Both the position numbers and the translations under genes were made by a program. From contig JADGBR010000009.1 of NCBI GenBank assembly GCA_015231405.1, forward strand, positions 25,423 to 89,422: DNA of 64,000 nucleotides, given 5' to 3'. Origin of the DNA: Candidatus Omnitrophota bacterium. GTDB lineage: Bacteria; Omnitrophota; Gorgyraeia; Tantalellales; Tantalellaceae. A model generated the notes under the pieces. That model searched no databases, had not been told where the DNA came from, and worked only from the letters and a program-made list of their open reading frames with translations. Within the stretch, counting starts at the first letter, position 1, and the number at the start of each line of letters is the position of its first letter. Positions 24,011 through 63,980 of this stretch are shown here, one piece after another.

Positions 24011-24065
24011 TTGAGAAGTTCGGTAAGGATCGCGTTAAGACCCTCTGGGATCCGCTATGTTCGTT

Positions 24066-26060: not shown

Positions 26061-26150
26061 TGACGAGAGGAAATTGTAAAATACTTGAGTCATTATTTCT
26101 GGGATTTTCCGCAACGTGTCTGGTACCAGCTAAACATTTACGGGAAAATA

Positions 26151-46970: not shown

Positions 46971-49900
46971 TTACGCTCTTGTCAAGATCTCCTGATACCT
47001 TTTGAACTCATTTTTGAGTTCCTCAATATTTATGGCCTCTATCTTTCTGACAAAGATAAAGTGTCCAAAAGCGTTCATGGTCAACCCCTTGATCGTCACC
47101 TTAGCCTTATCCCCTTTGACCGAAAGGAGTTTAAGCGTGGCGTCAAGCACTTCGCTTGTCGCGATATCGTTATATTCCATGTATATCGCGCCTTCGGGCA
47201 TACGCCTTTCGCGCCTTGTTTTTGATATCATATCCACAACAGCCACATTACCTTTTCCGTATTGCTGAACCCTCTCGATCATTTTATTTTCGACCGCCTG
47301 ATCGTGTTCACTTCGCTTAATGATAGTCAGGTCATCCTTACGGAGAATGCTGTCTATTCCCATTTTCTTGAGTATAGCGTCTTTATCCGAGTTCAGCTTC
47401 GCTATATCCGCGTCAAGTGCCGCCGCGTCGACGGGGCTAAGACCGCTGTCTTCCATGGCTACCGTGAGGACCAGCTTGAGCTTCTTCGGATTTCTCAGCC
47501 TGAATGACTCTGCCTGTATCCTGGCTTCACCAAGGGAGCCGACCGTCATTTCAACGATACCCGGTTGCTTATTGACGTCGTCAATATAATTCATCGTCCC
47601 GGTATCCAGTTTTGTCAGGGTCTTATCGGCGATATCACAGAGGTTGAAATTATACATACTGAGATCGTTTATCTCAGCCATCATGACGGGAAGTTTTATC
47701 TCCCCGAGTATTTCTTTCCACACTCCCTTAGCCCGGGCTATCTCCTCCACGGTCTCGGGTGTCATAATGGTAAGGGCTTTAATATCCTCAGCCCGTTTTT
47801 TGAGGAAAAGCCTGGTCTCATTTATCTCTATCTGGCGCACAAGAGCACCTATGGCCTGCCGGAGCTTCCTCCTGCCCCCTATCTCCTGCTGGTCCGCCAT
47901 ACCCGCCCATAACAGATTATGCTGTCTCCTGTACGTGTCCAATATTCCCATGTTCTCTTCTTTCTCGTTCCCTTTCGGGAGCGCGAGCACTTTAACGCTG
48001 CCCAATCCGGTCGAAGCCATATACTTATCCAATTCCGCCTGAGTGCTGTCAGTCTCCACCCCTATGACCATGCTCTCTACGCTCGTTCCAGCGAGACCCT
48101 GAGCCTGCTCAGCGTTGCGAAGCCGCGTCACTTCCTGGTTCGCCAGATATGCCGCGCCCATGGCCTGAGCGAAAGCGTTGACCGACGGGTCGTTCCCCGC
48201 AAGCTCCTCCGCAAGCATGATCTCGAGATCCGCTATTTCCGGATAGGAATCGTTAAGCACCCGGTGGATCCTGCCCTTATCGCGTCCGTTCCCAAGCATT
48301 ATGCGGTTGCCCTCAGGGCTTTCAAAACACCGCCCGGTCACGACAACAGTACGTATGAGGTCCCTGTGGTCGTAATAATCGCTTATCTCCGCGAGAAAGG
48401 AAGCCATATACAAACCCATTTCGTCATATATCTCCCTGACGATGTCGGCGCCCGGGAGATTCTCGTTCAGGATCTTCTGCACGTATTTCAGCTGCTGCGC
48501 CCTTCCCGCGCTCTTAACGGGTCCGAGGTCCAACCCTTTTTCCTTGGCCAGTATCATTATATTTTTCTGCGATAGATACAACGCCGCTATGCCGGTCGGC
48601 GTGCCTGGAAATTTCTCATACGAAACCTCGTTATCTTTACGCATATCTATTATCATCCTGCTCGCGTAAGTCCGGAGGTTCCCCAGAACACCCGAATGAG
48701 GCACATATCCCCCGGCAAGCGAAGTCCCGAGAGCCAGCGCCAGGACATTGCCGCGGTTGAGTTCCACGGAAGCCCAGAAAGCCCCGACATCTCCGTCATT
48801 CTTGATCACTACGGGAACTCCTCCCAGAGAAATTTTTAGAGTATCCGCCATAGGCGTAACTATTTCGTTGAATTCCTCCTTCGTAAGTCCTTTGGTCTTA
48901 GCTGTGTCGCCACCTACGATGAGATTATCGACTATTATGTCCGGCCAGCTTATCCCAACTCCCGCCAATATCTTCTGTTTCTCTCCCGATGCCGAATACA
49001 GCCTGCTCTTTATGTACTCGTTCTCCCCGGCCCGTTCTATGATGCTTCTGATCTTCACGATCGACGCTTCGGAAGCGGCTTCATTCTCAGCCGATGACAC
49101 ATCGGAACGGTAGCTTACGCTGTCTATCTCTTTTTCAAGAACATCCAGCTCCTGGTCAGGCTGGGTCCGCTGGCTAAGTATGGCCTTTAGTTCCATGATA
49201 TAGATCAGATCTCTCATGGTATCGACGTGCTCGGTGCTGCCTTTCGTGAAATTTTCCGGAGCCCAGTTGTATTTTTTATAGAATATGATGTCCTTACCTT
49301 TGTAAAGGAGAAGTTTCACATCCGATCCTCCGACATCAACTCCGGCCATGAAATCGCCGGGGGCGATATTTTTTAAACCTTTGAGGTTCAGGTCGCGCGC
49401 TTCCTGCATATTCTCCCTGCGTACCTTTATTCCTTTAGCCTTGATACTATCCATCCTGGACAGTTCTTCCCGGGTGACGGCGCGTATGAACTGGAACTCA
49501 TACCCGCCCAGGTTGATCTCGGCCTGGGCCTTCAGATTATCGCTCTCATCCTTCGTCAATTCGCCCTTCGAGGCTCGGTCGCCCGACAGGTATTCTCTCT
49601 CCAGCCTTTTGTACTCCTCGGATATGAATATTTGAAGCTCTTCCTCGCTATTTATGCCCATTGCCTTCCTGCGAACCACCCTATACGTGTTATTTATGGC
49701 GTCTATCGTCGGGAAGAAATCGTCCGTATACATGGCGTCTCTCGCTTCTTTGACCATGTCCGCCACAGAGTCATCGTATTTAAGGTAAACGTACTGCGGC
49801 CCTATAGCCTCCATCCTGTTCCTGAGAACTATTGTAAGATATCGGACAAGAAGTTCCCGGATTTCGGGCATTTCGTTCGAATTCACGGGTAAAGGGACAA

Positions 49901-52900
49901 CGAACCGCTGAGAACCATCCTTGCCCATATCAAAAACTATCTCGACATCTTTCATATATTCCCGATAACGTCCTCTGGCCTCGCGCATGACCGAATGCCA
50001 GTACGTTACCGGCTTGAAACCCTTGCCGTATCTCTGATCGTAAGTTCTCAACCTGTCGCTAAAGAATTGCCGCATATTGGCCTCGCTTGAAAGCTCTATG
50101 CTGAGATGCAGAGCCTTGACATAATCCCATATCATGGTGTACATCGCCTTGATATGGGTGAGCAATCCCATACCCATGAAAGAAGGAGCCATTTCATGCG
50201 CCAAAATGGACCTGGCGAGCGAATTATGAGTGTTTGTCATATCGACGAGCGCGAATATCTGGTCATCGCTGAGAAGAGAGGTCGTTCCGACCTCTGCGGG
50301 CTGGCCCAGATACGCTCTTCCCGAGGCGGCCGTCCGGAGCATATTGACCTTCTCCGCCCTGTCTTTCGAGTTACCGACAAGATCATTTATTTGTTCATGG
50401 GTCAGTTTCAGTTTCGACGTCATTATGGGCGTGACCATCGCGTCCTTTAAATGGGTCATCCATCGTACTTTGCCGCCGGAGAACTCGCGGTCATGCTCCC
50501 ACATCTTTGCAAATACGATAATTGCCGCGTACGCGTGGAATAAGGCGGGAAGCACGAAAACCGGTATCCCGCCCCATAGAGCTATATTAACAAGAGTGTC
50601 GTCCTTAGCGGCTATGGCCCCCAATATCAGCAGAATATACGCCGTTATCCCGGCCGCCGCGTGGACAAAAGCCCCGAGCGCCCTGAACGGATGTACTGCG
50701 GACGCCGGACCCTTTCTTCCATCGGACATATTTTCTATCGCCCGGTCCAGATAGCTTCCAATTTCGTCGAATTCCCCTCCGAGATAATATAGGCCTTCGA
50801 TCTTATCAGGAGCCATTCCGCCGCGCGCCAGATCGGCATACAAGACTTCCGCTTCACGATACGCCGCTTTTCCGTGCATACCGCCGCCGATATATCTTTC
50901 GGCGACTATCGTGGCTTTAGCCAACTCCTCGGGTTTATTCAGATCGGCGGCCACGACTTTCAGATCTATCCCTGGAATGGGATTTTGCATCAGGCGCTGA
51001 GTTACCGCCAGGCCATTACCTGCCAACGCCTCGTTGTCATGATACGTTATATCGACATACCCCTCTCTGGCCTGGTGTTCTATGGCGCGGTCTTTCTGTA
51101 TCCGCTGGTAAGTCCCTATCTCGAGCGGAGCGAACGGTTCATGTCTCATCGCAACGGGATACGGGGTCCGTCCGAGGACCTGTACCATATTGAGGTCTAT
51201 CGCGTTCTTACCCGCCACTACGGGTATTATCGAGATATCGCCAAGCTCGTTCCTTTCATGCATTCCCTCGAACAATTTGACGAGAACTTTCTCGACCTCT
51301 TTACGCGCCTCCAGAACAGCCTCGTATTCTGGAGTTTTCTTTTCAGGCTTGGGTTTGTATCCAAACGGCCGGTAAAGCAGCTTGGTTATGACCCGCGGCC
51401 CGCATTTAGCCCTGAGAGGATGCCCCTCGGGCAAATCCATGGCGTAAATATTCATCTCCGGAAGGTTGGCGTATCCGCCGAAACCTTTCGCCGTTAATAT
51501 TTCCCGCTGTCTGGCAAGTGCGTGATTTAGCTCCATATACGGCTCGTGTGCCCCGTGATATGTAAGCAGATCCATGATCTTAGCAGAGACATCCGACGAA
51601 AAGCCGGCCTGAAAAGAGGGCTCGATATCCAGCTCGTATTGGCTCCTCGCGCCGCGTTTCGGCACAAGCTTTGTCGCGCTTGTATCCAGAAAGAGGTCAA
51701 AAAGGTCCGTGAGGATGTCGTCGGCGACATCCTCAATGGACGCGTCCCAATTCTCGGTCGAAACATTGGCTATCATGGCGTCCCTTAAAGGGGTGTACAG
51801 CTCAAGGCCCGTTTCGCCCGTGAGCGAATTTTTTACCGTCCTTAATTCTTCAAGAGCTTTGGCGGTATTAATGCCGACTTTCCTGCCAAGCGCTATCATC
51901 GCGGCTAGCCGCCTTGCCGAATCATCGCTAAGGCTGGTTTCGCCTTTATCGAGAGTATCGTCCTTGTCAAAATCAAAAACAGGCGTCGCGGCGTTGATAA
52001 GCTTACCCCGTTTCCCGTCCTCTTTAACGAACGGGACACGGCCATAATAGGTCTTCTTACCATCTCTATTCTGGCGGAGGTCCGGAGCCCCCGTGAGCCT
52101 AATGATACGCGAATAGAACCAGTGGTCCTCTTCGTCTTTCAGCCCCTTACCGAGTTCTTCCAGAATAGCACTGATCGTCTCTGGATAGGTCCCTAAGCCC
52201 TCAAAACGGCCGCTTATCAAATCCAGATCTTTTTCCGCAAAACGGAACACACCGGAAACGGACCTCGATCTCGGCGTCTTAGGTTTTTCCGCGAACAGAC
52301 TGGTAGCGGCTGACCACCCTTTGCCTCCTTCGTGAAGATACCTAAAGCTCTTGACACCGAGGACCTCCATCCCGGAATCCTCGACAAACTCCTGAAAGCG
52401 CGGCCCGCTGACATGCTGGACAACGGTCTGTATGCTAACGATCCCGGCGTCAAGCGCTTCCATGAACTGATCAGCCGTATAGGATTTTTCGGTAAAGAAC
52501 TCATCATATGTCATATCCCTTATTACGTCCGGCACGGCGGCTTTTGTCTTGGAAAATTCCCAGTCCTGCCGGCTATAGTTCCTTTTCTGGAGGATTATCA
52601 AAGCGTCCTCGTTGCGTGATAGATCGGCTGAGGCGACAAAGTTCCGCATTACCGTATCCGCGTTTAAATATTCCGGTAAAGTGCCTCTTTCATTCATCCT
52701 TCTCAGGACTTCGGCGTGTACCGCGTATCGTCTTGATATCGCCAGGTTCCTCAATTTCACATTCTCGTCCTTTTCGGATAACTCAGGAGCTATCTTAAGA
52801 AAATCCAGGCCTGAAAAATATCCGCCCGGCTTAAGTACCCTGTATATCTCGCTGAGAACCTTTCTTTTCATGTTGTCATCAAGGAGAGTGCTGTATACCC

Positions 52901-55900
52901 TGTGAATAGTGACACCGTCGACGCTGTTATCTTCCAACGGTATACGCCCGTCTTCCTTTATAAGGCTGTATACCACGAACGGCTTTTTTGTTTTGCTAGC
53001 AATGGCTTTCGCCTGGTCGATCCATTGTTTAGTTATGTTCTCGACACCGGTCGCTAAGCTCCTCAATCCGTAAATTTTTGCCATTTCGGAAGCTTTAGCC
53101 AGATACCTGACTGAAATGTCGACCCCGATGCAGTTCACACCCTTTGAGACGAGCCAGTTGCTTTGTTCACCCGAACCGCAGCCGAATTCGAGAACGACAT
53201 TGGAAGCGCCTTTTTCACGGCCAAAAAGCCGCCTAAAGAACCTTTCAATAGGATCGCCAGCCAACCTGCTAAGCATTTCAAACGGCCTTGCCTGGACGGC
53301 GTCCTGTATCCCCGCCTTGTCCTCTCCCACGGCGGCAAGTTCCATTTCTCTTCCCTTTAATGTCATGTCAGGCTCAGGCCTTTCAGGACGGAAAGAACGA
53401 TTGGTGGTCTTTTTTATCCAGCGCTTAATGTCCCTCGCGGCGCCTTTCGGATCACTTTGTATTTTTTCCCACATCCGAGGAGAAGAACAAATGCCATTAC
53501 CATAGTGATATGACACCGCCCCGGATTGCTTTACTCCAAGGACGGTCATGGTGCTGTTATCCGTCACGGGCTTGAAAAATACCTCGTATTTCCCATCCCC
53601 CTTTACCCTGAAACTTATTATGTAAGGCTTGACAGATTCGTTAAGTTCGTCGATCCAATATGAGAGGATACCGGCGATCTGGGTCTTGCTCCAGCCCGTC
53701 AGTAACACACCTGCGTTCCAGTTATCAAGTTCGCTCACCTCGACGTCGCCTATCTCCCGGATATTCTTCTTCCTTATCTTCCCCGCGGCTCCGTCTTCCG
53801 CATCAAGTCCTTCCCAAATGGACGAGCTTTTTCGGTAATAATGCGCGTGAAAATGCCCCACTGAGCCGTGAGGCCGTGTATTGAAGAAGCCCTCGAATTC
53901 GGGACCAAGATTATCAGCGAACGTGAGTGAATCCACCAGCTTATCCCTGTTAAGGGTCTGGGGTGAAGCCTCTTCCGTGGCAAGCAGGATATGGTCCCGG
54001 AAGGTCACGTTCATATTTATCCAACTGACGTATTTTCTCGGAGTAGGGACCCCGTCCTCGCTGAAACTTGACTTAAAAAGCGCGTAATCGCTGAATTTTT
54101 TCAACTGGCAGGCCCAGCATCTTCTTGCGCCTTTCTGGGTAAAAGTAAATTCCTGGTGATCACGGAACATTTCTTCCGTCATTTCGGTGGGCCGGGCCGG
54201 TTTATATTGTCCTCTCCCGGGAATATATGTTATTGACGTTTTCGCCCCGTTACCCATATCCAGCTGGATAGTTTCGGGATCATAAGGGTATGGCATGACT
54301 CCCGAATCGTAAACTTGTTTCACCCTCATTGACACGAAATCGGCTAAGGCATTATCCGGCGGGCCTCTTGAATCCACCCCAAAATTGAATTCTTTAAGGC
54401 TTCTGGTGATCTTCTCCCGGCGGTAGTATTCGCTGACCTCGTTGACCGCGGCATCTTCATTCCCGTTGATATTCGCTACCAGGTAATGGAAGTCTTTCCA
54501 TCTTCTCAATTCCCTGACACCGCGGCTCATCCTTTCTTGGATGCCGCGATTAGCGGCTATGACAGCTTCTCCGGGCTCTGCGCCACCGTATTCTTCTCTC
54601 ACCAACCTTTCTTTAAGGACCCTTGTCGCTTCTTCAAGTGCTGCCGGCTCAATACGACCGGTATCGGGCATCCTTCTTGTCAGGCGATCTATAGCTATGG
54701 GCGATACATACACGTCGACGATATTTCCCGGGTACGTTTCCCTGACGACCTTGGCGCCTTCCACATCGATATCCACGATCACGTCTTTACCGGAGCTGAT
54801 CGCGCTGTCTATTTCATCCTTAACTATACCGTATCTCATGTCCCCGAACTTGACCGTATGGAAGAATTTATTTGTGTCCGCCATTTTCTCGAACTCGGCT
54901 TCCGAAATAAATTTATGGTCTCGACCTTCGACCTCGCCTTCCCGCGGCGCCCTTGTGGTGTACGAAACGACCCTAACGGCGTTTGGATGAGTTTCGGCGA
55001 ACCTGTTAAGCATCCTCCTTTTTCCTACTCCTGATGGTCCGGAAAAAACGAGTATTATAGGGTTACTTTTTATCTGCTCTTCGGTTGGCGTGGCCAAGGC
55101 GCGTTCAAGCTCAGGCGCTATTGTAATTTCTTTAGGCTCAGGTTTTGCCGGGACCTTCTTCAAAGGGAAAGCCACCCTTATGAACTTATAAACGACCAGT
55201 ACGACGATGACCAGTAATATTCCCGTCAATAAACCGGACCCGAAAAATGGGATCACACTGCCGGATAAGATCTCCCCGCTTGTCTTTTTCATTGATAATT
55301 CAGCTATTTGAGAGATCACCTCTCTCCTACCGCCCCCTCTTGCCACGCCGGCGGCGAAATATACGCCCAGGCCGGCCAATAAACCTATCAGCCGCCTTAT
55401 GATCCTTGTCCTCCAGGCGGCCCTGTTCATGTCCCTCTCCTTAAGCTCGGCTTTTTTAGCTTTGATCTCAGAGATAAGACGGTCTATTATAGCGGCCTGG
55501 TCCCAGAATACGTTCGACATGACTATCGAGAACTCGCCGAACTTTTTTGTCTCGTTTATTACGGAATCAAGCCTGGCCCCGATATTATCGTCCACGAGGG
55601 GCCTTATCGCTTCCGGCAGAGCGCCTGTTTCGTTAAGGGCTTTCTCTATTACTTCCGGCTCTGGGATGTCTTGATTATCAGGAAACGTTCTGGTCAATAT
55701 CCTGTAAATAAGCACTGCCCTGACAGCGTTCTCCGACTCTTTGGACAAGGTGCCGGCCGTATCTCCTTCCTCGAGTCTATCAGTCGCTATCGGAGATATG
55801 AAAAGGTCAACTATCCTGTCAGAATAGGTATTCCTTACCGCTGCGGCGCCTGCGGCGTCAAGGTCGATAAGCGCGTCCTTGCCCTCGGCAAGTATCTCAT

Positions 55901-58900
55901 CGATAGAGTCACGGGTAACACCGTAAAAGTTCCCTCCGAAATCGATCCACTGGAGGAATTTTCCCTCATCTCTCATCTTCTCGAACTCGGCCCTATCTAT
56001 GAAACGATGTTCGCGGCCGTCTTGTTCGGTTGGTCTTACGGTACGGGTCGTATAGCTGACCACCCTTTGAGCGTTAGGATACCTTTCAAAAATGCCCTTT
56101 ATGCCCCTCCCCGGGTGCCCATCGATGACAGTGCCTTTTCCTACGCCTGAAGGGCCGGATACCGTTATCACAACAGGGCAGTCCGGATCGCCTTGGATTT
56201 TAGAGTGCCTGCGGGTGCGTTCCCCCGAGAATCTCTTGTTAACAAGGACGAGGACCAGAGCGAACAATACGGCTCCTCCTAATATCACGAGCGGCAGATG
56301 GTTTTGGGCTATTTGTGCCAGCAATCCCGAGGATCCGCCGGATGCGGCCTGTACGGCGCTCATGTCCTGGCCTGTAATAAGCGTCCTGAACGCGTCAGCC
56401 ACCGGCGCGGCTTTTACGGCGGAAAGCCCGAAATATTTTTTCGCGTAATACGCAGGCATCAAAAAGCACAGGTACAGTATAGTGAAGAATGCGAAACCGT
56501 ATGTCCATAACTGCCGGAACCCGGAATGCCTCATGTACAGGTAGAACTTATCCCACTTCTCGGAATAGAAGTGCCATAACTCCTTATCGGGTCTCAGCTG
56601 CTGCTGGGCATATATCCGCTGAGGTAAGCGGTCAAGCCCGACTGGAAGGACCTTTTCGGTATACGGCCAGACATTATCGAGCCTGTTCCTTATCTGATAC
56701 CAGACCAGGCGCGCCGCGGCGTTCAGGTTGACAAAATACAGCGGCATGTAGAACGCTTTTGAAATGTAATAAATATAGAAATACGGCATTCGCCCTACAG
56801 GCAGATACCACTTGAAAAGCTGGAACAGTATTACGGTGCCAATAAGCATAACGCCGGGTACCATGAGCGTTAAGAACATATATGTCTGGACCATAAAAAC
56901 CGCGTTAAGCACGAGGACCGCGCCCAGGACGAAAGTCAGGAGCCCGGGACGGAACTGGCCTCTAGAGAATTTATTCATCTCGGCTTCAAGAGTTCCTATC
57001 CTGGTCCTGATAGACTCGGCGATAAGCGCCCTCCCCCTCTGAACGGCGCCGTTCACGTTAAGGGCCGGACTTGAATAATAGTCGGAGAGAAGGTCAGCGA
57101 AGAAGGTAGACCTTCCTCCGTCCCTTTTTTGTTTGTCAAAATCCCTGTCGCCATGTAAAAGCCACTTTCTCAGCATGGTAATTACCTGCCGGCTCGATCT
57201 TTTCTTCTCGGCGGGGGTAATATCACCTCTCAGGTTAATTGCCGTTATCTCAAGAGCTGCGTCTTCCAGGTATTTCAGGTCTTTAGTGACCCAGTTGGTC
57301 ACATCGTCCTGTTGAAACCCACCGGTCGCGCCGGACTCCACCTTTGCCAGGTCGTTTCTAAACTCTTCCAGCCGGTCGCTGTAGAAATCGGATATACCTT
57401 TCGATATCTTCTCGGTCCCTCCCAGCTTATTCTTAAAAAGCGCCGTCACGTTGTGGTATACCTGATAAAAATAGAACGTCATCATTATCGTGACACCTAC
57501 GGACGCGGAGGCTATGAACCATATATCCCACGGAAGCCACGTCTTCATGGTTTCCGAGAAGACATGCACAAGCCCGGACAACCCCGACGAATCGCGCGCG
57601 AGCATGCTTGAAAGCGGCATACCGCTGAATACCGCGACTTTCCCGAGTATTTCAGCGCCTACAAAAGCCAGAAAGTAGAAAAATGTAACGGCGAAACTGA
57701 GCGCCGTGAAGATCGTTGATGTAAATCCCGAATCGAGGAGGATATTGATGAAGAAGTTCCCCCATCCTATCTGTTTTATCCTATTCTCGACCTGTTCAGG
57801 CTGTTCTATGAATCCCAGTCTGCAGAGTAACAGAGTAAATCCCCTCGACGCCGCATAACCCAGTAATAGCCCCGCTATGGCTCCCAGCAATGTCCCCGTT
57901 AGACCTACCGCGATACCCGTTCTTAAGCCCAGTATGCCTCCGACTATACCCGCGAAACCATACGTGAAAATAGGTATTGTCAAACTGAAAGAAGCCCCAA
58001 GGATAGCCGCGGAAGACACGATCATGATCCACCTGGACCTCTGTCCATGCCACGCGAATCCCATAGGCCCGGCCTGTTCCAGGACGGATGAACCCATATC
58101 GGTGTAGTAGTATACCCTCTTCCCCCTCTGGGTCACTCTCATGCCCAGAGCCTTGTCCTCGGTAGTATCGTCGCGCGGATGCATCCCCAGGGGTTTAAGC
58201 CCGGAGAGTTCGGCCATCATGATAAGCATGCGCCCTTTTTCAGCCGTCGCAAGGTTCTCGTGCACGTCAACCCTTGCCGCTTCGAGTATATCCTCCACCT
58301 TTCCCCTGGCCGTCCTGGTACCGTCATTCTCATATCCAAGCATCGACCTCGACTCGAACCAGTTGGAAAGCCCGTCCAGGTGGAACACGGTATGGGTCTG
58401 TGCCATACGCATGATAAAATCCCATCCTCTTTCCCTGGCTACACGAACAAGCGACGATGAGAAAATAAAAGCGCCATAGTATCCTATTATCGGCAGAAAC
58501 ACGGCGTTCGCCAGCACTATGACGCTGAGGCTGAACGCGGATATCGTCAGGGTCGATCCGATAAGACCCAGGACTATGCCAAGGATCGTGGCGATGATCG
58601 CGATCGGCGTTCTGGGCGCCACTAGTCCGAATTTAACCGGGCCCCAGCCGTTATAGTCCAGAAAGAAGGATTTGTTAAGGCCGTAAGGCATCTGTATCGG
58701 GATCCCCTGCATGACGGACGGACCCTCCCTTTCCCTCATTTCCTCAAATATGTATTCCTCTTTGCTTTTGTAAACTCCCGTTTCGCGGTCAAATATCTTA
58801 ACCATCATATCGCCGACAGGGTCGCCTGGCCTCGCTTTCTCCGCCATCTTCGAATATTTATCATACTCTTTTGAGATCTTCATGCCGGCGTACAGATCTA

Positions 58901-61900
58901 TGTTCCAGCGTATGGCCTCGTCATATAGAGCCTTGTTCCTCCTTATCAGGTTCGAAGGGAGAATATTCTCAGGATGCGCGACCACTTCTCCTTCTTCCGT
59001 CTCGTCGAGCATTTCGCGGGTCAGGCATGCAACCACGCTTTTTACGCGTTCATATCCCGTGGTAACGGTCCAGTAATGGAATTTCTGGGGCTCATTATCC
59101 TCGTCGAGTATCTCCCATATCTCCGGCAGAGCTCTCCTTCCTTCTATAAAATCCACATCGATCTCGCTGTAAGCCATATTCGTGCCGCTCGGTTTTGACA
59201 AAGGCTGGTTCTGCTGGCCAGGCTGGTTCGGTATAGGCACCGGCTCGGGATGGGTCATTACCCTCATAGGGTCCATGCCGACGGCTCTCGCCGCCGCCTC
59301 GCCCGCGGGGACTATATTCATCCCGCCCAGCGTCAGCGGTATGATGGTAGCCAACGACACATTGAACCGGTCCGCCGGATACTCACCGTTGGTCACGCCA
59401 TGAGCTATGCTCCGTTCCGCGCAGCTCCCGGCCGTAGGGCCCGGCATACACGGCCTCATCACGTCGAGATCGGTGGCGAGTATCCTCGCGTATCCGACAA
59501 CTCCTTCATGTCCCAGCTCGGCATGAAGAGCCTCTAGTATTTCTCTATTGTCGATAACTCCCCTGTCAGCGGCGAATCCTGAAAGGTCAGGTTGACCAGC
59601 CGCGTCGTTGAGTATCCCTGTCGCCGCGATGAAATCCAGGGCTTCAGGCCGGAGCCGCGCGGGATGGGCCTCTGTTCCCCTTAACCTTTCAATTATCCTT
59701 TTTAGGAGGGCAGCGTCAAAGCCGGAATTCTTATCCGCCCAGGTCGGATTCCCGGCGAACTGCGGCGGAGTGGGTACGGCGTTGAACATGCTCCTTAAGA
59801 GTTCTATCTGGTCATAGCCGTTGATATACACATAATGATAGTTCCGCATCGTCCTGCCGACCGCGCCTGTTTGGGCCTCTTCGGCTGACTGCTGATCCTC
59901 GCCCGCTATCGATTCCGCGACCTTGTACTCATCGTCCGTAACGAACGTCCTCGTCTCTTTCCAGAAGAACCCGTTCGATTTCAGCCACGGTTTGAGGAAC
60001 ATTGTGCAGATCATGAACGCCGTACCGCCTGTCACGATGAACATCTTGATGCCCATATTCACCCATGTTGCGCTTTTGTCTATCCCTATCTCTAAAGACC
60101 CCAGGCTCAAGACTTCAGGGAGCGCCGGAAGACCGAAGAAATATATAGCGTGGCTGACAGCGACCAGGATGCCGACGAGGACCAGCATCGTCCTGGCGTG
60201 CCGTTTCAGCACGGTCTGGAGCGCGGCCATAGACCCTAATCTGCCGTGTTCCTTGCTTTCCCTGGCGGCGATATGCGCCCTGTTCTTTTTGGCTGCCAGA
60301 GGATCGGTATACCCTTTAAGGTTCTCGATAAGTACCGTGGTTTCCCATAACTCATAAGGCACGGTATGCGCGAAAAGCTCTTTGCTCTCTTTTTTCGTTC
60401 TGGAGCTCACCACCTTAAGAGCCCCGTTCGGCTTTGTCTCGAGCCTTTCGGCGTACGCGCCTGAGCCCTGGACAATACCCTCGTCCCCGAAACCGGGGAG
60501 CACGAACCCGCCGGATGTACCGGCGTTAATGTTGTTATCGTCCTGGTTGAACTTTATCTTGCGCCATCCCAGGCCTTCGAGATCCTGTACAAGCATCCTC
60601 TTATACCTCATCTCATCCACTACCCATACGCGCCACCTCAACCGTTCCCGGCCTTTGGAATCCAGGACCCTAAGAGCGTCATTCATAAGCGCGGTCGTTT
60701 CTATCCTGGCTATCCTGATGGTGTCGAATATGTCCTGGTATGCCTGGAGATCCAGGGTTAAGCTGTTAACGTCCGGAAGCGGCACCCTCATGGGAATGCC
60801 CTTGATATTTTCGGCGACGAGCTTCCTCATTAACGCCGTTTCCGGGTCGTCTTCTCCGCGAGCGGCAATAAGCTGGCGAAGTCCCGTCTCCACTTCGTTC
60901 AGATTATCATTGACCAGTTTCATCGCCTCGGCCTGCGCCCTGGCGTATTTCGCCCTTTTGGAGACGGGGCTGGCCAACAATTCCTTAACGAACCATCTCA
61001 GCATCGGGAACCATTGCCGTTCGATAGCTTTCCACTGTTTGTTGTTTACGGATATTGTCCTTATCTCTTTCCTCTCGGGCCAGATCAGACTTATAGCGAT
61101 GATGACAATCCCGCTTATCCAAAGGTTATTGTTCGGGAAGACCATTATCCCCGTAAAACCGGCAAGCCATATCCCGAGGGACGCCATACCGATGACCGTT
61201 ATACCGAATGCGGTCGAAGGCCGTATCGACCTTTGAGCTTCCCATAATATCTCTATAGGTTTTGCCATATTGCCCATATCTGTCGCTTTTTTCGCGCGCC
61301 TGCCAACGTACTTGTCTATCAATTTTATGACTTCGCCCACTCCTTTATTGCGCGCTGTTTTTTCAACGCCCGGACCTGGCGCGGCCGCCGGAGCCGACGG
61401 ACCTTTCGTCGGTCCGACCGGTTTAGCTTCCCCAGATCCCCCTAAAGGAAGGACCGGTTCCGTATACGGCTTGGCCCTCCACTTTCTTAGCGTCCCGACA
61501 TTCTTCCTCAAAATGTTAGCGCCGAACAGCAATAACGCCAAAGCCAGACCGTACATGCTTATGTCCATTATGAATGTTTTCCACTCGTCGACGTCGTCAG
61601 CCATGTAGGTAAGCGTCCCGGGCTTATGGAGGTTGACCATGGTCACCACCTGGTCGACCGCCTGGTCACGCCTCACGCTCTTGGCTTTTGTCGCGAACAC
61701 AGTATCCCCTCTCGCGACCGATACGGCCTGTTCGTATATGACCGAATATATCTTGTCTATACTTTCTTCGGTCACCCCTTCCAGAGCGTATTTTCCCATA
61801 AGCACTTCTATGGCCGCCTTGATCTTGGGGTTATCTGAAATAGCTTTCACCTCATCGCTGATGTCCCCATATTTGGAATTGACCGTCTGATCGGCCCAGG

Positions 61901-63980
61901 ACACAAGCTTAGCGATAAATTCGTCCGTATTGACCGACCCGGGCTCGACACCCGCGAGAGTCGATATGACCTCTTTTACGAGAGTCACCGCCTTCAATGT
62001 CCTCATGATCTCCGGGCTTACTAGAGGATCTCGTACATTCCTTTCCTTCATCAGCGTATATACCGCCGTTAATAGCTCCTTATTATCGTGCGCCCCGAGT
62101 TTGTTATCCGGGTCTATCCCGTCGAGGAACTCCGTCAGCCTCTTACCCATGGCCCCTTCGGGAAAAACCTCGTATATTGTGCTTCTATCCGAGCCGAATT
62201 TAAGTAGGGACCTCTGATCCGGGACCTTCCCTGCGCTGACCCTCATAGCACCGTTGATCACATCAACACCGCCCAGCGAGTTATCGCTGAAAACGGTCTG
62301 CTCCGGATCCTCAACGATCCTTTGCAGCATCATCCCCCGGATGAATACGTCCCCTTCGAACGATTCCGAACTTCCGCGTCCTATGGATATCCTCATTCCA
62401 AGTTCCGCTATCCTCGTGGGGTCGACTTTTTTCTGAAAACCCGGCCGTACCCTTACAGTTATCCAGCCTTCGGTATTGTTCTCTCGGTTGCCCCTGGTGA
62501 TATTTATCGTGAACCCCGTGCTTTCCTCCCCGTTTCCCGTCTTTATGTTCACCCAGTTGCCCTCATGCCTGCCGACATCCCCGGACCATCCCTTGTTCGC
62601 GCAGGACGCCTCGACACCGTTCGCGATTATCCTGTTCTCACCCAGGAACGCCGATCTGCCCTCTTCCCCGTCGAACTTCACCTGGTAAACGAATTCCCAG
62701 TTCCTCAGGTCCACCGTGCCGTCCTGGCCGACCTTAAGTTCATCCTCTTTTACGCCTTCTAAAAGCTCTTCAACCGGCATATATATTGAAGCGCATCTGC
62801 CTTCATCGTTCCCCCCCAGCTGTCTGCCCCGGATACTGATATGATATTTGAGAACGCCTTTCTGTGTGGCTGCGTCCCATCCAAGTACAGGCACCATGTT
62901 GGTCAAATTCCTTCCTGTCGCCCTGCTGAATCCGGGTAAAGCCGTATGACGCTCGTAAACTACGGAATTAAAGTAGGGTATGGGCGTTTTTATCCCGTTC
63001 CAGGCCACAAGACTGGCCAGCTCACTGTTTATCTGGTAGTACTTGTCGTCGGCGATCTCTCTGCTTATCTTCCCGTCCCTGACCGACTGGTCAAGTATGC
63101 GTCCGATGGCTATCAGTTTGGCCGTTATTATGTACGGGGCGGCCTGTTTCATTTTCTTCCATTGTTCCTGTATGTATTTCTCGCTCGCGCCCTCGTACAT
63201 CGCCCTGAATCCCTCGACCGGTTCCTTACTTCCTAGCATATTTATATCGTCGGTCACCCATCCCTTTAGATAATCCACATCCCAGTTGTTCTTGAGCTGA
63301 TCGATGAGATAATCCAGTATCTCGGAATAGGAATGTCCTTCCGCGAACTGGGCAAGACCCAAGAGCGATAAAGGCGGCCTTAACAGATACTCGATCTTAA
63401 TGGTCTTCGCCCCCTCGATCATTTCCTCGCTCAATACCTTGTATATCTCTATGACTTCGGGCTGGCTTACCTCAAGGTCTCTGGCGCCGTTCCTCTCTAT
63501 CTCATTAACGGTACCCCTGATCTTCATCCGCACATTGGGGTCTTTGGCCGAAACCCCGTAGAAGTATTTGAACACCCCGGGCTGTGAATCCACTGGAACA
63601 GTGAAAACATAATCTTCCCCGGCCTCTGCCGTCTCACCTTCCGGGCCCATCTGACCCGCTTGTCCGGACTCTCCTTTGGCACCTTGGGCTCCTTCTTTTC
63701 CCTCTTCCGCTTTAGTGACCTTAGCCTGGCCGCGATCCCGGGACGGCACAACGATCTTTTTTACGCGGAAGAAAAGTACCGGTTTCTCGCCGCTATTATC
63801 GATACGTCCGTTGCCAAGAAATTTCACGTCTTTGACCTCGCGCTCCGCTCTTGACGCCATACGCTCGTCGACCACATCGACGCGAAAGATCTTACCGGTA
63901 TCCCTGGACAGGGGGTCCCGTATCCTCACATATGCGAATGACGGGGCCCTCAGATCATCGTACCCTATATCGGCCAGCAC
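46971..63980 (-). CDS. Giant multidomain polytopic membrane protein (gene C). At least 5669 codons lie in the window and the 5' end lies beyond the window end. Domains are tandem repeats, transmembrane-rich modules, two guanylate-kinase domains, a HIT-like region, a SAM methyltransferase, a ROK-like sugar kinase domain and the shared C-terminal domain
   Basis: ORF from the track, open to the window edge. TAA at 46971-46973. Multiple hydrophobic helices at residues 806-822, 925-970, 1262-1330, 1785-1845, 1985-2170, 2345-2400, 2480-2510, 2560-2582, 2860-2940 and 4430-4490. Confidence 0.9.
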   Translation of the reverse strand: MLADIGYDDLRAPSFAYVRIRDPLSRDTGKIFRVDVVDERMASRAEREVKDVKFLGNGRIDNSGEKPVLFFRVKKIVVPSRDRGQAKVTKAEEGKEGAQGAKGESGQAGQMGPEGETAEAGEDYVFTVPVDSQPGVFKYFYGVSAKDPNVRMKIRGTVNEIERNGARDLEVSQPEVIEIYKVLSEEMIEGAKTIKIEYLLRPPLSLLGLAQFAEGHSYSEILDYLIDQLKNNWDVDYLKGWVTDDINMLGSKEPVEGFRAMYEGASEKYIQEQWKKMKQAAPYIITAKLIAIGRILDQSVRDGKISREIADDKYYQINSELASLVAWNGIKTPIPYFNSVVYERHTALPGFSRATGRNLTNMVPVLGWDAATQKGVLKYHISIRGRQLGGNDEGRCASIYMPVEELLEGVKEDELKVGQDGTVDLRNWEFVYQVKFDGEEGRSAFLGENRIIANGVEASCANKGWSGDVGRHEGNWVNIKTGNGEESTGFTINITRGNRENNTEGWITVRVRPGFQKKVDPTRIAELGMRISIGRGSSESFEGDVFIRGMMLQRIVEDPEQTVFSDNSLGGVDVINGAMRVSAGKVPDQRSLLKFGSDRSTIYEVFPEGAMGKRLTEFLDGIDPDNKLGAHDNKELLTAVYTLMKERNVRDPLVSPEIMRTLKAVTLVKEVISTLAGVEPGSVNTDEFIAKLVSWADQTVNSKYGDISDEVKAISDNPKIKAAIEVLMGKYALEGVTEESIDKIYSVIYEQAVSVARGDTVFATKAKSVRRDQAVDQVVTMVNLHKPGTLTYMADDVDEWKTFIMDISMYGLALALLLFGANILRKNVGTLRKWRAKPYTEPVLPLGGSGEAKPVGPTKGPSAPAAAPGPGVEKTARNKGVGEVIKLIDKYVGRRAKKATDMGNMAKPIEILWEAQRSIRPSTAFGITVIGMASLGIWLAGFTGIMVFPNNNLWISGIVIIAISLIWPERKEIRTISVNNKQWKAIERQWFPMLRWFVKELLASPVSKRAKYARAQAEAMKLVNDNLNEVETGLRQLIAARGEDDPETALMRKLVAENIKGIPMRVPLPDVNSLTLDLQAYQDIFDTIRIARIETTALMNDALRVLDSKGRERLRWRVWVVDEMRYKRMLVQDLEGLGWRKIKFNQDDNNINAGTSGGFVLPGFGDEGIVQGSGAYAERLETKPNGALKVVSSRTKKESKELFAHTVPYELWETTVLIENLKGYTDPLAAKKNRAHIAARESKEHGRLGSMAALQTVLKRHARTMLVLVGILVAVSHAIYFFGLPALPEVLSLGSLEIGIDKSATWVNMGIKMFIVTGGTAFMICTMFLKPWLKSNGFFWKETRTFVTDDEYKVAESIAGEDQQSAEEAQTGAVGRTMRNYHYVYINGYDQIELLRSMFNAVPTPPQFAGNPTWADKNSGFDAALLKRIIERLRGTEAHPARLRPEALDFIAATGILNDAAGQPDLSGFAADRGVIDNREILEALHAELGHEGVVGYARILATDLDVMRPCMPGPTAGSCAERSIAHGVTNGEYPADRFNVSLATIIPLTLGGMNIVPAGEAAARAVGMDPMRVMTHPEPVPIPNQPGQQNQPLSKPSGTNMAYSEIDVDFIEGRRALPEIWEILDEDNEPQKFHYWTVTTGYERVKSVVACLTREMLDETEEGEVVAHPENILPSNLIRRNKALYDEAIRWNIDLYAGMKISKEYDKYSKMAEKARPGDPVGDMMVKIFDRETGVYKSKEEYIFEEMREREGPSVMQGIPIQMPYGLNKSFFLDYNGWGPVKFGLVAPRTPIAIIATILGIVLGLIGSTLTISAFSLSVIVLANAVFLPIIGYYGAFIFSSSLVRVARERGWDFIMRMAQTHTVFHLDGLSNWFESRSMLGYENDGTRTARGKVEDILEAARVDVHENLATAEKGRMLIMMAELSGLKPLGMHPRDDTTEDKALGMRVTQRGKRVYYYTDMGSSVLEQAGPMGFAWHGQRSRWIMIVSSAAILGASFSLTIPIFTYGFAGIVGGILGLRTGIAVGLTGTLLGAIAGLLLGYAASRGFTLLLCRLGFIEQPEQVENRIKQIGWGNFFINILLDSGFTSTIFTALSFAVTFFYFLAFVGAEILGKVAVFSGMPLSSMLARDSSGLSGLVHVFSETMKTWLPWDIWFIASASVGVTIMMTFYFYQVYHNVTALFKNKLGGTEKISKGISDFYSDRLEEFRNDLAKVESGATGGFQQDDVTNWVTKDLKYLEDAALEITAINLRGDITPAEKKRSSRQVITMLRKWLLHGDRDFDKQKRDGGRSTFFADLLSDYYSSPALNVNGAVQRGRALIAESIRTRIGTLEAEMNKFSRGQFRPGLLTFVLGAVLVLNAVFMVQTYMFLTLMVPGVMLIGTVILFQLFKWYLPVGRMPYFYIYYISKAFYMPLYFVNLNAAARLVWYQIRNRLDNVWPYTEKVLPVGLDRLPQRIYAQQQLRPDKELWHFYSEKWDKFYLYMRHSGFRQLWTYGFAFFTILYLCFLMPAYYAKKYFGLSAVKAAPVADAFRTLITGQDMSAVQAASGGSSGLLAQIAQNHLPLVILGGAVLFALVLVLVNKRFSGERTRRHSKIQGDPDCPVVITVSGPSGVGKGTVIDGHPGRGIKGIFERYPNAQRVVSYTTRTVRPTEQDGREHRFIDRAEFEKMRDEGKFLQWIDFGGNFYGVTRDSIDEILAEGKDALIDLDAAGAAAVRNTYSDRIVDLFISPIATDRLEEGDTAGTLSKESENAVRAVLIYRILTRTFPDNQDIPEPEVIEKALNETGALPEAIRPLVDDNIGARLDSVINETKKFGEFSIVMSNVFWDQAAIIDRLISEIKAKKAELKERDMNRAAWRTRIIRRLIGLLAGLGVYFAAGVARGGGRREVISQIAELSMKKTSGEILSGSVIPFFGSGLLTGILLVIVVLVVYKFIRVAFPLKKVPAKPEPKEITIAPELERALATPTEEQIKSNPIILVFSGPSGVGKRRMLNRFAETHPNAVRVVSYTTRAPREGEVEGRDHKFISEAEFEKMADTNKFFHTVKFGDMRYGIVKDEIDSAISSGKDVIVDIDVEGAKVVRETYPGNIVDVYVSPIAIDRLTRRMPDTGRIEPAALEEATRVLKERLVREEYGGAEPGEAVIAANRGIQERMSRGVRELRRWKDFHYLVANINGNEDAAVNEVSEYYRREKITRSLKEFNFGVDSRGPPDNALADFVSMRVKQVYDSGVMPYPYDPETIQLDMGNGAKTSITYIPGRGQYKPARPTEMTEEMFRDHQEFTFTQKGARRCWACQLKKFSDYALFKSSFSEDGVPTPRKYVSWINMNVTFRDHILLATEEASPQTLNRDKLVDSLTFADNLGPEFEGFFNTRPHGSVGHFHAHYYRKSSSIWEGLDAEDGAAGKIRKKNIREIGDVEVSELDNWNAGVLLTGWSKTQIAGILSYWIDELNESVKPYIISFRVKGDGKYEVFFKPVTDNSTMTVLGVKQSGAVSYHYGNGICSSPRMWEKIQSDPKGAARDIKRWIKKTTNRSFRPERPEPDMTLKGREMELAAVGEDKAGIQDAVQARPFEMLSRLAGDPIERFFRRLFGREKGASNVVLEFGCGSGEQSNWLVSKGVNCIGVDISVRYLAKASEMAKIYGLRSLATGVENITKQWIDQAKAIASKTKKPFVVYSLIKEDGRIPLEDNSVDGVTIHRVYSTLLDDNMKRKVLSEIYRVLKPGGYFSGLDFLKIAPELSEKDENVKLRNLAISRRYAVHAEVLRRMNERGTLPEYLNADTVMRNFVASADLSRNEDALIILQKRNYSRQDWEFSKTKAAVPDVIRDMTYDEFFTEKSYTADQFMEALDAGIVSIQTVVQHVSGPRFQEFVEDSGMEVLGVKSFRYLHEGGKGWSAATSLFAEKPKTPRSRSVSGVFRFAEKDLDLISGRFEGLGTYPETISAILEELGKGLKDEEDHWFYSRIIRLTGAPDLRQNRDGKKTYYGRVPFVKEDGKRGKLINAATPVFDFDKDDTLDKGETSLSDDSARRLAAMIALGRKVGINTAKALEELRTVKNSLTGETGLELYTPLRDAMIANVSTENWDASIEDVADDILTDLFDLFLDTSATKLVPKRGARSQYELDIEPSFQAGFSSDVSAKIMDLLTYHGAHEPYMELNHALARQREILTAKGFGGYANLPEMNIYAMDLPEGHPLRAKCGPRVITKLLYRPFGYKPKPEKKTPEYEAVLEARKEVEKVLVKLFEGMHERNELGDISIIPVVAGKNAIDLNMVQVLGRTPYPVAMRHEPFAPLEIGTYQRIQKDRAIEHQAREGYVDITYHDNEALAGNGLAVTQRLMQNPIPGIDLKVVAADLNKPEELAKATIVAERYIGGGMHGKAAYREAEVLYADLARGGMAPDKIEGLYYLGGEFDEIGSYLDRAIENMSDGRKGPASAVHPFRALGAFVHAAAGITAYILLILGAIAAKDDTLVNIALWGGIPVFVLPALFHAYAAIIVFAKMWEHDREFSGGKVRWMTHLKDAMVTPIMTSKLKLTHEQINDLVGNSKDRAEKVNMLRTAASGRAYLGQPAEVGTTSLLSDDQIFALVDMTNTHNSLARSILAHEMAPSFMGMGLLTHIKAMYTMIWDYVKALHLSIELSSEANMRQFFSDRLRTYDQRYGKGFKPVTYWHSVMREARGRYREYMKDVEIVFDMGKDGSQRFVVPLPVNSNEMPEIRELLVRYLTIVLRNRMEAIGPQYVYLKYDDSVADMVKEARDAMYTDDFFPTIDAINNTYRVVRRKAMGINSEEELQIFISEEYKRLEREYLSGDRASKGELTKDESDNLKAQAEINLGGYEFQFIRAVTREELSRMDSIKAKGIKVRRENMQEARDLNLKGLKNIAPGDFMAGVDVGGSDVKLLLYKGKDIIFYKKYNWAPENFTKGSTEHVDTMRDLIYIMELKAILSQRTQPDQELDVLEKEIDSVSYRSDVSSAENEAASEASIVKIRSIIERAGENEYIKSRLYSASGEKQKILAGVGISWPDIIVDNLIVGGDTAKTKGLTKEEFNEIVTPMADTLKISLGGVPVVIKNDGDVGAFWASVELNRGNVLALALGTSLAGGYVPHSGVLGNLRTYASRMIIDMRKDNEVSYEKFPGTPTGIAALYLSQKNIMILAKEKGLDLGPVKSAGRAQQLKYVQKILNENLPGADIVREIYDEMGLYMASFLAEISDYYDHRDLIRTVVVTGRCFESPEGNRIMLGNGRDKGRIHRVLNDSYPEIADLEIMLAEELAGNDPSVNAFAQAMGAAYLANQEVTRLRNAEQAQGLAGTSVESMVIGVETDSTQAELDKYMASTGLGSVKVLALPKGNEKEENMGILDTYRRQHNLLWAGMADQQEIGGRRKLRQAIGALVRQIEINETRLFLKKRAEDIKALTIMTPETVEEIARAKGVWKEILGEIKLPVMMAEINDLSMYNFNLCDIADKTLTKLDTGTMNYIDDVNKQPGIVEMTVGSLGEARIQAESFRLRNPKKLKLVLTVAMEDSGLSPVDAAALDADIAKLNSDKDAILKKMGIDSILRKDDLTIIKRSEHDQAVENKMIERVQQYGKGNVAVVDMISKTRRERRMPEGAIYMEYNDIATSEVLDATLKLLSVKGDKAKVTIKGLTMNAFGHFIFVRKIEAINIEELKNEFKRYQEILTRA
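46974..47723 (-). other. Domain in C: shared C-terminal domain
   Basis: IKLPVMMAEINDLSMYNFNLCDIADK ... NEFKRYQEILTRA. Confidence 0.6.
48231..49373 (-). other. Domain in C: ROK/glucokinase-like ASKHA sugar kinase domain
   Basis: PGDFMAGVDVGGSDVKLLLY (4874-4893) is the phosphate-1 loop, cf. GIDIGGTKI. VLALALGTSLAGGYVPHSG (5079-5097) is the phosphate-2/adenosine loop, cf. LTLGTGIGGGIV. The ROK CxCGxxGCxE zinc motif is absent. Confidence 0.45.
52701..53303 (-). other. Domain in C: class I SAM-dependent methyltransferase fold
   Basis: Motif I is NVVLEFGCGSGEQSNWL (3594-3610), followed by an acidic motif II loop. Motif post-III is VLSEIYRVLKPGGYFSGLD (3708-3726). Confidence 0.6.
53781..54383 (-). 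other. Region in C: HIT-like (histidine-triad) nucleotide hydrolase/transferase-like motif region
   Basis: RPHGSVGHFHAHYY (3370-3382) fits the H-phi-H-phi-H-phi-phi triad. The assignment is tentative. Confidence 0.3.
54561..55073 (-). other. Domain in C: guanylate kinase-like domain 2, preceded by a transmembrane helix
   Basis: GSGLLTGILLVIVVLVVYKF (transmembrane), then PIILVFSGPSGVGKRRML ... RVVSYTTRAPREGEVEGRDHKFISEAEFEKMADTNKFFHTVKFGDMRYGIVKDEIDSAISSGKDVIVDIDVEG. Confidence 0.7.
55641..56183 (-). other. Domain in C: guanylate kinase-like domain 1, preceded by a transmembrane helix
   Basis: HLPLVILGGAVLFALVLVLV (transmembrane), then VITVSGPSGVGKGTV ... RVVSYTTRTVRPTEQDGREHRFIDRAEFEKMRDEGKFLQWIDFGGNFYGVTRDSIDEILAEGKDALIDLD. 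These are the Gmk P-loop and TTR...E.G..Y.F signatures. Confidence 0.7.

Follow-up and report, generated by a model that had tools for sequence, protein, structure and literature searches.

Our analysis covers a stretch of 64,000 nucleotides (hereafter the window) of contig JADGBR010000009.1 from a Candidatus Omnitrophota bacterium (assembly GCA_015231405.1, contig positions 25,423 to 89,422 of the forward strand). It concerns two guanylate-kinase-fold domains, GK1 and GK2, located in protein C, one of the giant proteins encoded there. All long reading frames in the window lie on the minus strand, including four giant open reading frames (ORFs) named C, B2, B3 and D. These four ORFs and the two domains have the following window coordinates.

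46971-63980, minus strand: giant ORF C, 5,669 amino acids inside the window, stop-free up to 63998
34698-46808, minus strand: giant ORF B2, 4,036 amino acids
26151-34625, minus strand: giant ORF B3, 2,824 amino acids
1-23565, minus strand: giant ORF D, more than 7,855 amino acids, running off the left edge
55425-56174, minus strand: GK1, guanylate-kinase-fold domain, window-protein amino acids 2603-2852 (PF00625, TIGR03263, 1GKY and structural model)
54390-55058, minus strand: GK2, guanylate-kinase-fold domain, window-protein amino acids 2975-3197 (PF00625, TIGR03263, 1GKY and structural model)

C is uninterrupted and its N-terminus is cut off by the window edge. When 1.84 billion representative proteins were searched with HMMER, a single entry matched at 100%: MBF0216447.1, a protein of 7,175 amino acids from a Candidatus Omnitrophota metagenome-assembled genome (MAG), encoded on a contig of 93,998 nucleotides. 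The window carries the last 5,669 residues of this protein, and full-length numbering equals the window-protein numbering used here plus 1,506. About 18 distinct hydrophobic helices were observed in the window part of C.

In the same part of C, the Walker A motif occurs exactly twice, each time as GPSGVGK, at amino acid 2609 (nucleotide 56156) and amino acid 2981 (nucleotide 55040); at least one such motif was present in just 9 of 5,000 shuffles of C. Both domains matched the Pfam family PF00625 above its gathering cutoff of 25.2 bits, with 67.3 bits (E 1.8e-18) for GK1 alone and 154.1 bits (E 4.2e-45), distributed over two stretches, for a piece carrying GK1 and GK2. The best PDB sequence match of each was the yeast guanylate kinase 1GKY (E 2.4e-19 for GK1 and 6.8e-22 for GK2), and the core identity to bacterial Gmk was 35-43%. 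An AlphaFold2 model of amino acids 2555-3215, built from an input alignment of 24 sequences, had a mean predicted local distance difference test (pLDDT) score of 76.3, with values of about 90 over both cores (GK1 ~86-96, GK2 ~92-98). Compared with solved guanylate kinases using Foldseek, it reached target-normalised template modelling scores (TM-scores) of 0.80-0.87. Since the model superposes on the solved kinases, the C-terminal parts outside the Pfam profile (lid, last strand and helix) are also present, and in the model the fold, made of a core, a nucleoside monophosphate (NMP)-binding domain and a lid, is complete in both domains. We consider the family and fold of both domains to be established, as the first-pass annotation of this DNA had proposed. 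The ranges given there (55641-56183 and 54561-55073) fell short of the domains, which extend to about 55425 and 54390. The same annotation had read a Gmk signature in both copies. GPSGVGK does occur twice, but the second element, given as E.G..Y.F, is in fact E.DG.EH.F in GK1 and E.EG.DH.F in GK2, with His in place of Tyr in both. The P-loop of GK1 reads GPSGVGKGT and is followed by an 8-residue insert, and its lid is enlarged by inserts of about 21 and 20 amino acids. GK2 has the P-loop GPSGVGKRR, in which no Ser or Thr follows the Lys, and a lid insert of about 25 amino acids.

Both domains were aligned with 119 references, consisting of yeast Guk1, E. coli Gmk and 117 matches of 160-260 amino acids from the HMMER search. 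Of 24 columns conserved in at least 90% of these references, 22 were kept in GK1 and 20 in GK2, and the sole columns absent from both were Tyr50 and Glu69. Glu69 (yeast E69, human E72), present in all 119 references, is replaced by Gln in GK1 and by His in GK2. Tyr50 (human Y53), present in 113 of the 119, is His in both. GK1 and GK2 retained the P-loop Lys, Ser34, Thr36, Thr37, Arg38, Arg41, Glu44, Tyr78, Gly79, Gly103 and, as aligned by MAFFT, Arg131 and Arg146, as well as Asp98 and Asp100, whose columns are less strictly conserved among the references. Work on human GUK1 assigns hydrogen bonding of the base to Glu72 and Ser37, stacking on it to Tyr53, phosphate binding to Tyr53 along with Arg41, Arg44 and Tyr81, and catalysis of the transfer to Arg137 and Arg148 (PMC11349198). 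As far as sequence can tell, the altered base pocket argues against plain guanosine monophosphate (GMP) specificity.

Whether GK1 and GK2 are bona fide guanylate kinases (GMP + ATP -> GDP + ADP), tethered to the membrane and feeding a local use of GDP/GTP or GDP-sugars, in line with the local supply suggested by the first-pass annotation, has to be weighed against these substitutions. The nearest sequence and structure matches of both domains are all enzymatic guanylate kinases, and the retention of Ser34, Arg38, Arg41, Tyr78 and Asp100 would suit a GMP kinase. With Gln or His at position 69, a hydrogen bond to a purine would still be conceivable, and the Val or Ile at position 80 is also found in 19 of the 119 references. 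However, a residue invariant in the references and another found in nearly all of them are missing from both copies, and both domains scored below the cutoff (160.45 bits) of the NCBIfam guanylate-kinase equivalog TIGR03263, with 108.1 bits for GK1 and 130 bits for GK2. Such an activity is also not obviously needed, as GDP-sugar glycosyltransferases release GDP, not GMP. Several features described below, namely the PGM/PMM domains of B2, the ROK-like region and histidine-triad (HIT) motif of C, and a weak nucleoside diphosphate kinase (NDK) match in a related protein, would fit a nucleotide or nucleotide-sugar theme, and a precedent may exist in FAP42, which was proposed to keep local GTP (bioRxiv 10.1101/2021.06.16.448709). 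On balance, we regard true GMP kinases as quite unlikely.

Two known departures from Gmk within the family were also considered and rejected. A PhnN-type kinase (ribose 1,5-bisphosphokinase) was dismissed on its TIGR02322 scores of 36.5 bits for GK1 and 48.9 bits for GK2 (cutoff 156), far under the Gmk scores. A catalytically dead domain of MAGUK (membrane-associated guanylate kinase) type was dismissed on the intact GxxGxGK P-loop and on PDB sequence matches, where enzymatic kinases scored 62-82 bits and MAGUK GK domains 29-46 bits, a preference for the enzymes of 30-40 bits. Pfam scans of C showed neither PDZ or SH3 domains nor any other scaffold partner. The first-pass annotation had suggested comparing the GMP-binding residues with those of MAGUK domains, and the comparison came out divided: the phosphate-binding arginines and the P-loop Lys are kept, while Glu69 and Tyr50 are replaced. 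Because the P-loop Lys, the two arginines that bind phosphate and apparently most of those in the lid are retained, the domains are not MAGUK-type; they can be placed in the fold family and are not demonstrably guanylate kinases.

Three hydrophobic segments of C bear on how the two domains are placed relative to the membrane. The insertion values below are on a Hessa-type scale.

56241-56297, minus strand: strong transmembrane helix 1, amino acids 2562-2580, LPLVILGGAVLFALVLVLV, Kyte-Doolittle mean 2.95, Hessa-type value -2.39
55341-55391, minus strand: marginal hydrophobic helix, amino acids 2864-2880, LIGLLAGLGVYFAAGVA, arginine-flanked, Kyte-Doolittle mean 2.07 over 17 amino acids
55191-55247, minus strand: strong transmembrane helix 2, amino acids 2912-2930, FFGSGLLTGILLVIVVLVV, Kyte-Doolittle mean 2.73, Hessa-type value -2.56

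On the Hessa-type scale, helices 1 and 2 favour insertion more than any other segment in the window part of C, and both are helical in the AlphaFold2 model (model residues 2-30 and 362-383, respectively). The first-pass annotation had given each domain its own transmembrane anchor, and a strong helix does precede each P-loop, by 28 residues for GK1 and 50 for GK2. Helix 1, however, is conserved in D and is the last helix of the core common to C and D, and is thus not GK-specific; it also lies outside the interval assigned to the pair. The further proposal that a unit of helix plus GK domain had been duplicated did not hold, since helix 1 is found in D with no GK domain after it and only the GK domains themselves are paralogous.

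Helix 1 is followed by the Lys/Arg-rich stretch NKRFSGERTRRHSK, with five positive charges in the next 15 amino acids and none in the preceding 15, and helix 2 by YKFIRVAFPLKKVPAKPEPK, so that a Lys/Arg cluster lies C-terminal to both strong helices. By the positive-inside pattern, both would run from outside to inside, both GK domains would be cytoplasmic and one span would be needed between them. The only candidate for this span is the marginal helix between GK1 and helix 2, which we take to be membrane-spanning because the pattern of the two strong helices needs one span. It has no 19-residue window below +3 on the Hessa-type scale, and in the model it is the tail of a long helix (H274-327) that continues the C-terminal helix of GK1. 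We infer that it forms the outward half of a transmembrane hairpin between GK1 and GK2, and that both domains are cytoplasmic, the latter from the positive-inside pattern together with their need for ATP.

GK1 and GK2 are the nearest relatives of each other (34% identity overall, E 1e-43). They have in common several derived features (SYTTR, His50, [IV]SPIA and a lid insert), so that the altered pocket is older than their duplication. Among about 15 billion proteins (1.84 billion representatives in the HMMER search) no orthologue of the GK block was found, and the next match after the protein itself scored 160 bits. When GTDB species genomes were scanned with this block, only ordinary gmk genes in unrelated MAGs came up. 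A homologue search with the block and a profile of GK1, GK2 and the domain pair of protein P0141 (described below) returned canonical Gmk proteins of about 200 amino acids, with no further giant relatives among the matches listed. The best non-self matches to the GK block were uncharacterised proteins from bacteria, each with two or three GK domains.

P0001, P0002, P0026, P0027, P0033, P0035, P0041 and P0042: soluble bacterial proteins with tandem or triple GK domains

In these proteins, as in GK1 and GK2, [IV]SP[IV] replaces PPS, a helical lid insert of about 15 amino acids precedes RLxxR, and Glu69 is absent from at least one copy per protein. They are 400-800 amino acids long. Glu69 and Ser34 are regularly missing from their N-terminal copy, and their last copy is canonical; in C, unlike in these proteins, neither copy is canonical. 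P0033, on locus L006, has an ordinary bacterial gene neighbourhood.

A closer parallel in setting is P0141, a distantly related protein of 3,099 amino acids encoded on a 234-kb Joint Genome Institute (JGI) metagenome contig (locus L005) beside genes of 10,579 and 2,000 amino acids, in a homologous giant-gene array. It carries two GK-like domains without Glu69, both with Asn at Asp98, and shares homology in its N-terminal domain with B2, B3 and D. Like the tandem GK proteins, the P0141 pair is only 25-35% identical to GK1 and GK2 and keeps Tyr50, and no membrane helices flank the GK domains in the tandem proteins or in P0141. Tandem GK-like domains therefore recur in this giant-gene family, and the adjoining membrane helices do not. 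A weak NDK match lies just upstream of the P0141 pair (L005 13085-13258, P0141 amino acids 1029-1086). The N-terminal domain shared by B2 (~45200-46808), B3 (~33000-34625) and D (~21800-23400) comprises about 500 amino acids after a hydrophobic leader, with 27-41% identity, and three consecutive genes of locus L005 begin with it (3999-5408, 10127-11317 and 19431-20048). This domain is without a match in Pfam and serves as a marker of a tandem giant-gene family.

Our preferred reading, which we hold tentatively and at slightly less than even confidence, is that GK1 and GK2 are cytoplasmic, membrane-tethered, ATP-using phosphotransferases whose acceptor is not canonically read GMP. They are paralogous, divergent members of the GK (NMP-kinase) fold and would occupy cytoplasmic parts of a multi-enzyme protein that is giant and polytopic. 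GK1 would form a cytoplasmic loop of about 280 amino acids pinned at both ends, by the last core helix and by the marginal helix paired with helix 2. GK2 would open a cytoplasmic stretch of about 1,500 amino acids that runs into the HIT-motif region and a methyltransferase. ATP would still be bound, and its phosphate passed to a phosphate-bearing acceptor held by Arg38, Arg41 and Tyr78. This acceptor could be a nucleoside monophosphate other than GMP, any of a broader set of them, or a different phosphate monoester. Within an enzyme array attached to the inner side of the membrane, the two domains would phosphorylate nucleotides locally.

Several observations weigh against this reading. The P-loop of GK2 has Arg-Arg where nearly all references have Ser, Thr, Asp or Gly followed by Thr, Ser or Ala; Arg at position 16 was found in 1 of the 119 references. 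The GK2 lid keeps R131 and R146 and has Thr at position 135 in place of Arg. In GK1, the lid arginines (R131, R135 and R146) were aligned by MAFFT only past the 21-residue insert and were left unaligned by the profile hidden Markov model. The TIGR03263 scores below cutoff fit a non-catalytic binding module equally well. The conservation of columns was judged against references picked by their similarity to the query, and the searches above gave no orthologue in which the unusual residues could be seen to be conserved. The placement of GK1 and GK2 on the same side of the membrane depends on the marginal helix.

In a rival reading, the domains, having lost GMP recognition, would be non-catalytic GK-like modules, binding a nucleotide or phospho-ligand in a regulatory or scaffolding role and organising the enzyme array, analogous in principle to MAGUK GK domains in which the GMP phosphate site is reused for phosphopeptides. 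The replacement of Glu69 and Tyr50 in both copies, the GKRR P-loop, the loss of Arg135 in GK2 and the heavily remodelled lid of GK1 all agree with such modules. So do the relatives: the N-terminal copies of the tandem GK proteins, without Glu69 and Ser34 beside an intact last copy, suggest that degenerate copies do something else, and both P0141 copies have lost Asp98. Yet the retained set, comprising GxxGxGK, Arg38, Arg41, Glu44, Tyr78, Asp98 and Asp100, Arg131 and Arg146, is more than one would expect to survive drift in a dead domain. Ser34, missing from those N-terminal copies, is kept in GK1 and GK2, and both the score advantage of enzymatic kinases over MAGUK domains and the Pfam scans empty of scaffold partners point the same way. 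We judge non-catalytic modules to be unlikely, while taking them seriously as a competitor to the phosphotransferase reading.

The two domains lie at the start of a large block by which C differs from its paralogue D. Amino acids 2-2602 of C are 65% identical to amino acids 5091-7644 of D (blastp). The duplicated core, a large and helix-rich intragenomic duplication, measures about 2,600 amino acids (56175-63977 versus 634-8295, minus strand). A C-terminal domain starting with MVIGVE is common to B3, C and D.

580-759, minus strand: D junction, with the last core helix (D amino acids 7603-7621), KRFAGER, a 27-residue linker and the C-terminal domain MVIGVE
48075-56216, minus strand: C-specific block, amino acids 2589-5302, about 2,715 amino acids separating the last core helix from the shared C-terminal domain
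52776-53213, minus strand: class I S-adenosylmethionine (SAM)-dependent methyltransferase, amino acids ~3590-3735, PF08241 E 7.7e-17

In a local alignment, KRFAGER, 27 amino acids and MVIGVE in D correspond to KRFSGER, about 2,715 amino acids and SMVIGVE in C. The first-pass annotation had described D as passing directly from the same transmembrane helix to its C-terminal domain; only this 27-residue linker lies between them. It had also called the GK block an insertion specific to C. The pair is indeed absent from D, but the C-specific block holds much besides: GK1 and GK2 are followed by the HIT-motif region, the SAM methyltransferase, a transmembrane hairpin (amino acids 4434-4492) and an ASKHA/ROK-like region. 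The block is C-specific relative to D, through a gain in C or a loss in D. Its composition is like that of the rest of the locus (G+C content 0.507-0.512, third-position G+C content 0.565-0.592). We rejected a recent foreign origin of the GK block, as both values are within or near the locus range. Full-length C lacks the N-terminal anchor and the SecA part of D, indicating that C corresponds approximately to the C-terminal half of D.

The remaining regions of the block vary in how well they can be assigned. The methyltransferase is also above cutoffs for PF13649, PF08242 and PF13847, and the only homologue of its region was P0039, a 1,823-residue JGI fragment (30% identity over 450 amino acids). 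In P0039, a PRK/uridine-kinase domain (amino acids 615-794) follows the methyltransferase. Just past GK2, a histidine-triad-type motif, GHFHAHYY, is found at 53835-53855 (minus strand) within a region at 53346-54113 (amino acids 3290-3545). A motif of this type was present in 32 of 5,000 shuffles of C, and the region has no Pfam, PDB or homologue support. For amino acids 3200-3600 after GK2, a homologue search, Pfam at E <= 10 and a PDB sequence search were all empty, and a single-sequence AlphaFold2 model was unusable (pLDDT 34.9). The flanks of the HIT motif may resemble GDP-hexose phosphorylases (VTC2/GDPGP1), a likeness that would fit a guanine-nucleotide theme. Motifs of ASKHA/ROK sugar kinases, GVDVGGSD and NDGDVGA...LALGTSLAGG, occur at 48351-49358 (minus strand, amino acids 4875-5210), with an NCBIfam ROK glucokinase match at E 0.009 and a PDB match to glucokinase 2QM1 at E 0.65, which is weak support.

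With these regions in view, the altered pocket may mark an undescribed substrate class. GK1 and GK2 would then be membrane-tethered kinases of another nucleotide or of a sugar- or lipid-linked phosphate, forming with the HIT-motif, methyltransferase and sugar-kinase-like regions a self-contained nucleotide(-sugar) supply line within a giant protein of the envelope of an ultra-small bacterium with a predatory or epibiotic life. We consider this extended proposal very unlikely. The helix-rich core of C and D bears on a separate reading, in which the domains phosphorylate a non-nucleotide phosphate ester near the membrane (a sugar phosphate or lipid-linked phosphate) and act in glycopolymer assembly together with a weakly glycosyltransferase family 2 (GT2)-like core. 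The retained phosphate-clamping residues beside the lost base-reading residues would agree with it, as would the short tethers to the membrane and the existence in the GK family of a kinase that does not act on NMPs, PhnN, to which both domains are weakly similar. Glyco_trans_2_3 matches were found in the core of both C and D, but at 16-17 bits they are below the cutoff of 27 bits. The PhnN scores are likewise far below those for Gmk and below their own cutoff. A non-nucleotide kinase is, in our view, the least likely of the readings considered here, and phosphotransferases with an altered acceptor remain the one we prefer.

Other giant proteins of the window also contain enzyme-like domains. 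D has SecA_DEAD and SecA_PP_bind (preprotein cross-linking) domains and a sub-threshold SecA P-loop at 18406-19815 (minus strand, amino acids 1251-1720). In B2, all three PGM/PMM domains are above threshold (42552-43760, minus strand, amino acids 1017-1419), and a sub-threshold CofD-like region lies at 36306-36854 (minus strand, amino acids 3319-3501). B3 has a phosphoenolpyruvate (PEP)-utilising enzyme domain (E 5.3e-31), after which comes a weak HPr-like match (28827-29636, minus strand, amino acids 1664-1933). Near its start in the window, C has a short collagen-like Gly-x-y run, KEGAQGAKGESGQAGQMGPEGE (amino acids 92-121, 63618-63707, minus strand), with a sub-threshold Pfam Collagen match. 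Between D and B3, inside a low-GC gap (23566-26150) where the G+C content falls to 0.45, an IS66-family transposase is split across at least two overlapping ORFs (24066-25095, minus strand; PF03050 E 7.9e-17 and 3.3e-11) and is probably a frameshifted remnant. An Rfam scan of the window found no RNA family.

Published work lists many enzyme-like domains in Omnitrophota giant proteins. GK1 and GK2 are small, well folded in prediction and easily expressed alone, and could offer one of the first biochemical handles on the role of the cytoplasmic enzyme arrays in these proteins. The paired loss of GMP-reading residues beside a full phosphotransfer set makes a clean case for asking whether the activity of housekeeping domains embedded in this way is kept, changed or lost. 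If GK1 and GK2 prove ordinary or dead, they would be merely one further domain in a known protein class.

Compared with known systems, GK1 and GK2 share with Gmk/GUK1 (EC 2.7.4.8) the fold of core, NMP-binding domain and lid and the GPSGxGK P-loop. They differ in their enlarged lids and in being embedded in a membrane protein of 7,175 amino acids, whereas Gmk is a soluble protein of about 200 amino acids. The MAGUK domains of PSD-95/DLG, CASK and MPP also reuse the GK fold in a membrane-associated setting, without normal GMP kinase function. They have a degenerate P-loop and bind phosphopeptides (PMC10171801), whereas the P-loop of GK1 and GK2 is intact and no PDZ or SH3 partners accompany it. 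A counterpart in design is FAP42 of the Chlamydomonas ciliary central apparatus, which has a mass of about 300 kDa, four GK domains and a proposed role in local GTP maintenance (bioRxiv 10.1101/2021.06.16.448709). FAP42 (PDB 7N6G/7SQC) was the second-best PDB sequence match of GK2 (E 7.8e-22) and the top Foldseek match. Like C, it is very large and has several GK domains fixed to a cellular structure. Unlike C, it is eukaryotic, soluble, microtubule-bound and without membrane helices, and its first GK domain keeps the canonical residues. The resemblance is a design analogy rather than orthology.

As a whole, the locus is nearest to the giant proteins of Omnitrophota called Archaeovorins, which have many transmembrane helices and divergent SecA domains as well as methyltransferase, PGM/PMM and pyruvate/PEP enzymes (West-Roberts et al., 2023; bioRxiv 10.1101/2023.11.21.568195). 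Related 'multi-enzyme metabolic clusters' have been read as inner-membrane-anchored arrays of cytoplasmic domains (bioRxiv 10.64898/2026.06.07.730766). Guanylate kinase is unmentioned in the main texts of these two studies and in one supplement. The window locus has in common with Archaeovorins its Omnitrophota origin, its tandem giant genes, many transmembrane helices and, in D, a divergent SecA_DEAD domain. In line with Omnitrophota giant proteins, it also has PGM/PMM, PEP/pyruvate-utilising, methyltransferase and ROK-like content, with enzyme domains between helices. The window genes encode 2,824 to more than 7,855 amino acids, compared with the class of 30,000 residues or more at the focus of the first study (bioRxiv 10.1101/2023.11.21.568195), and HEAT, GT5 and GT1 domains, the most frequent content of that class, had no Pfam match at E <= 0.01 in the window giant proteins. 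The window proteins are smaller relatives of the Archaeovorin class, not typical members. What GK1 and GK2 bring is a divergent domain type added to an already described class of giant multi-enzyme proteins, which will be no surprise to specialists.

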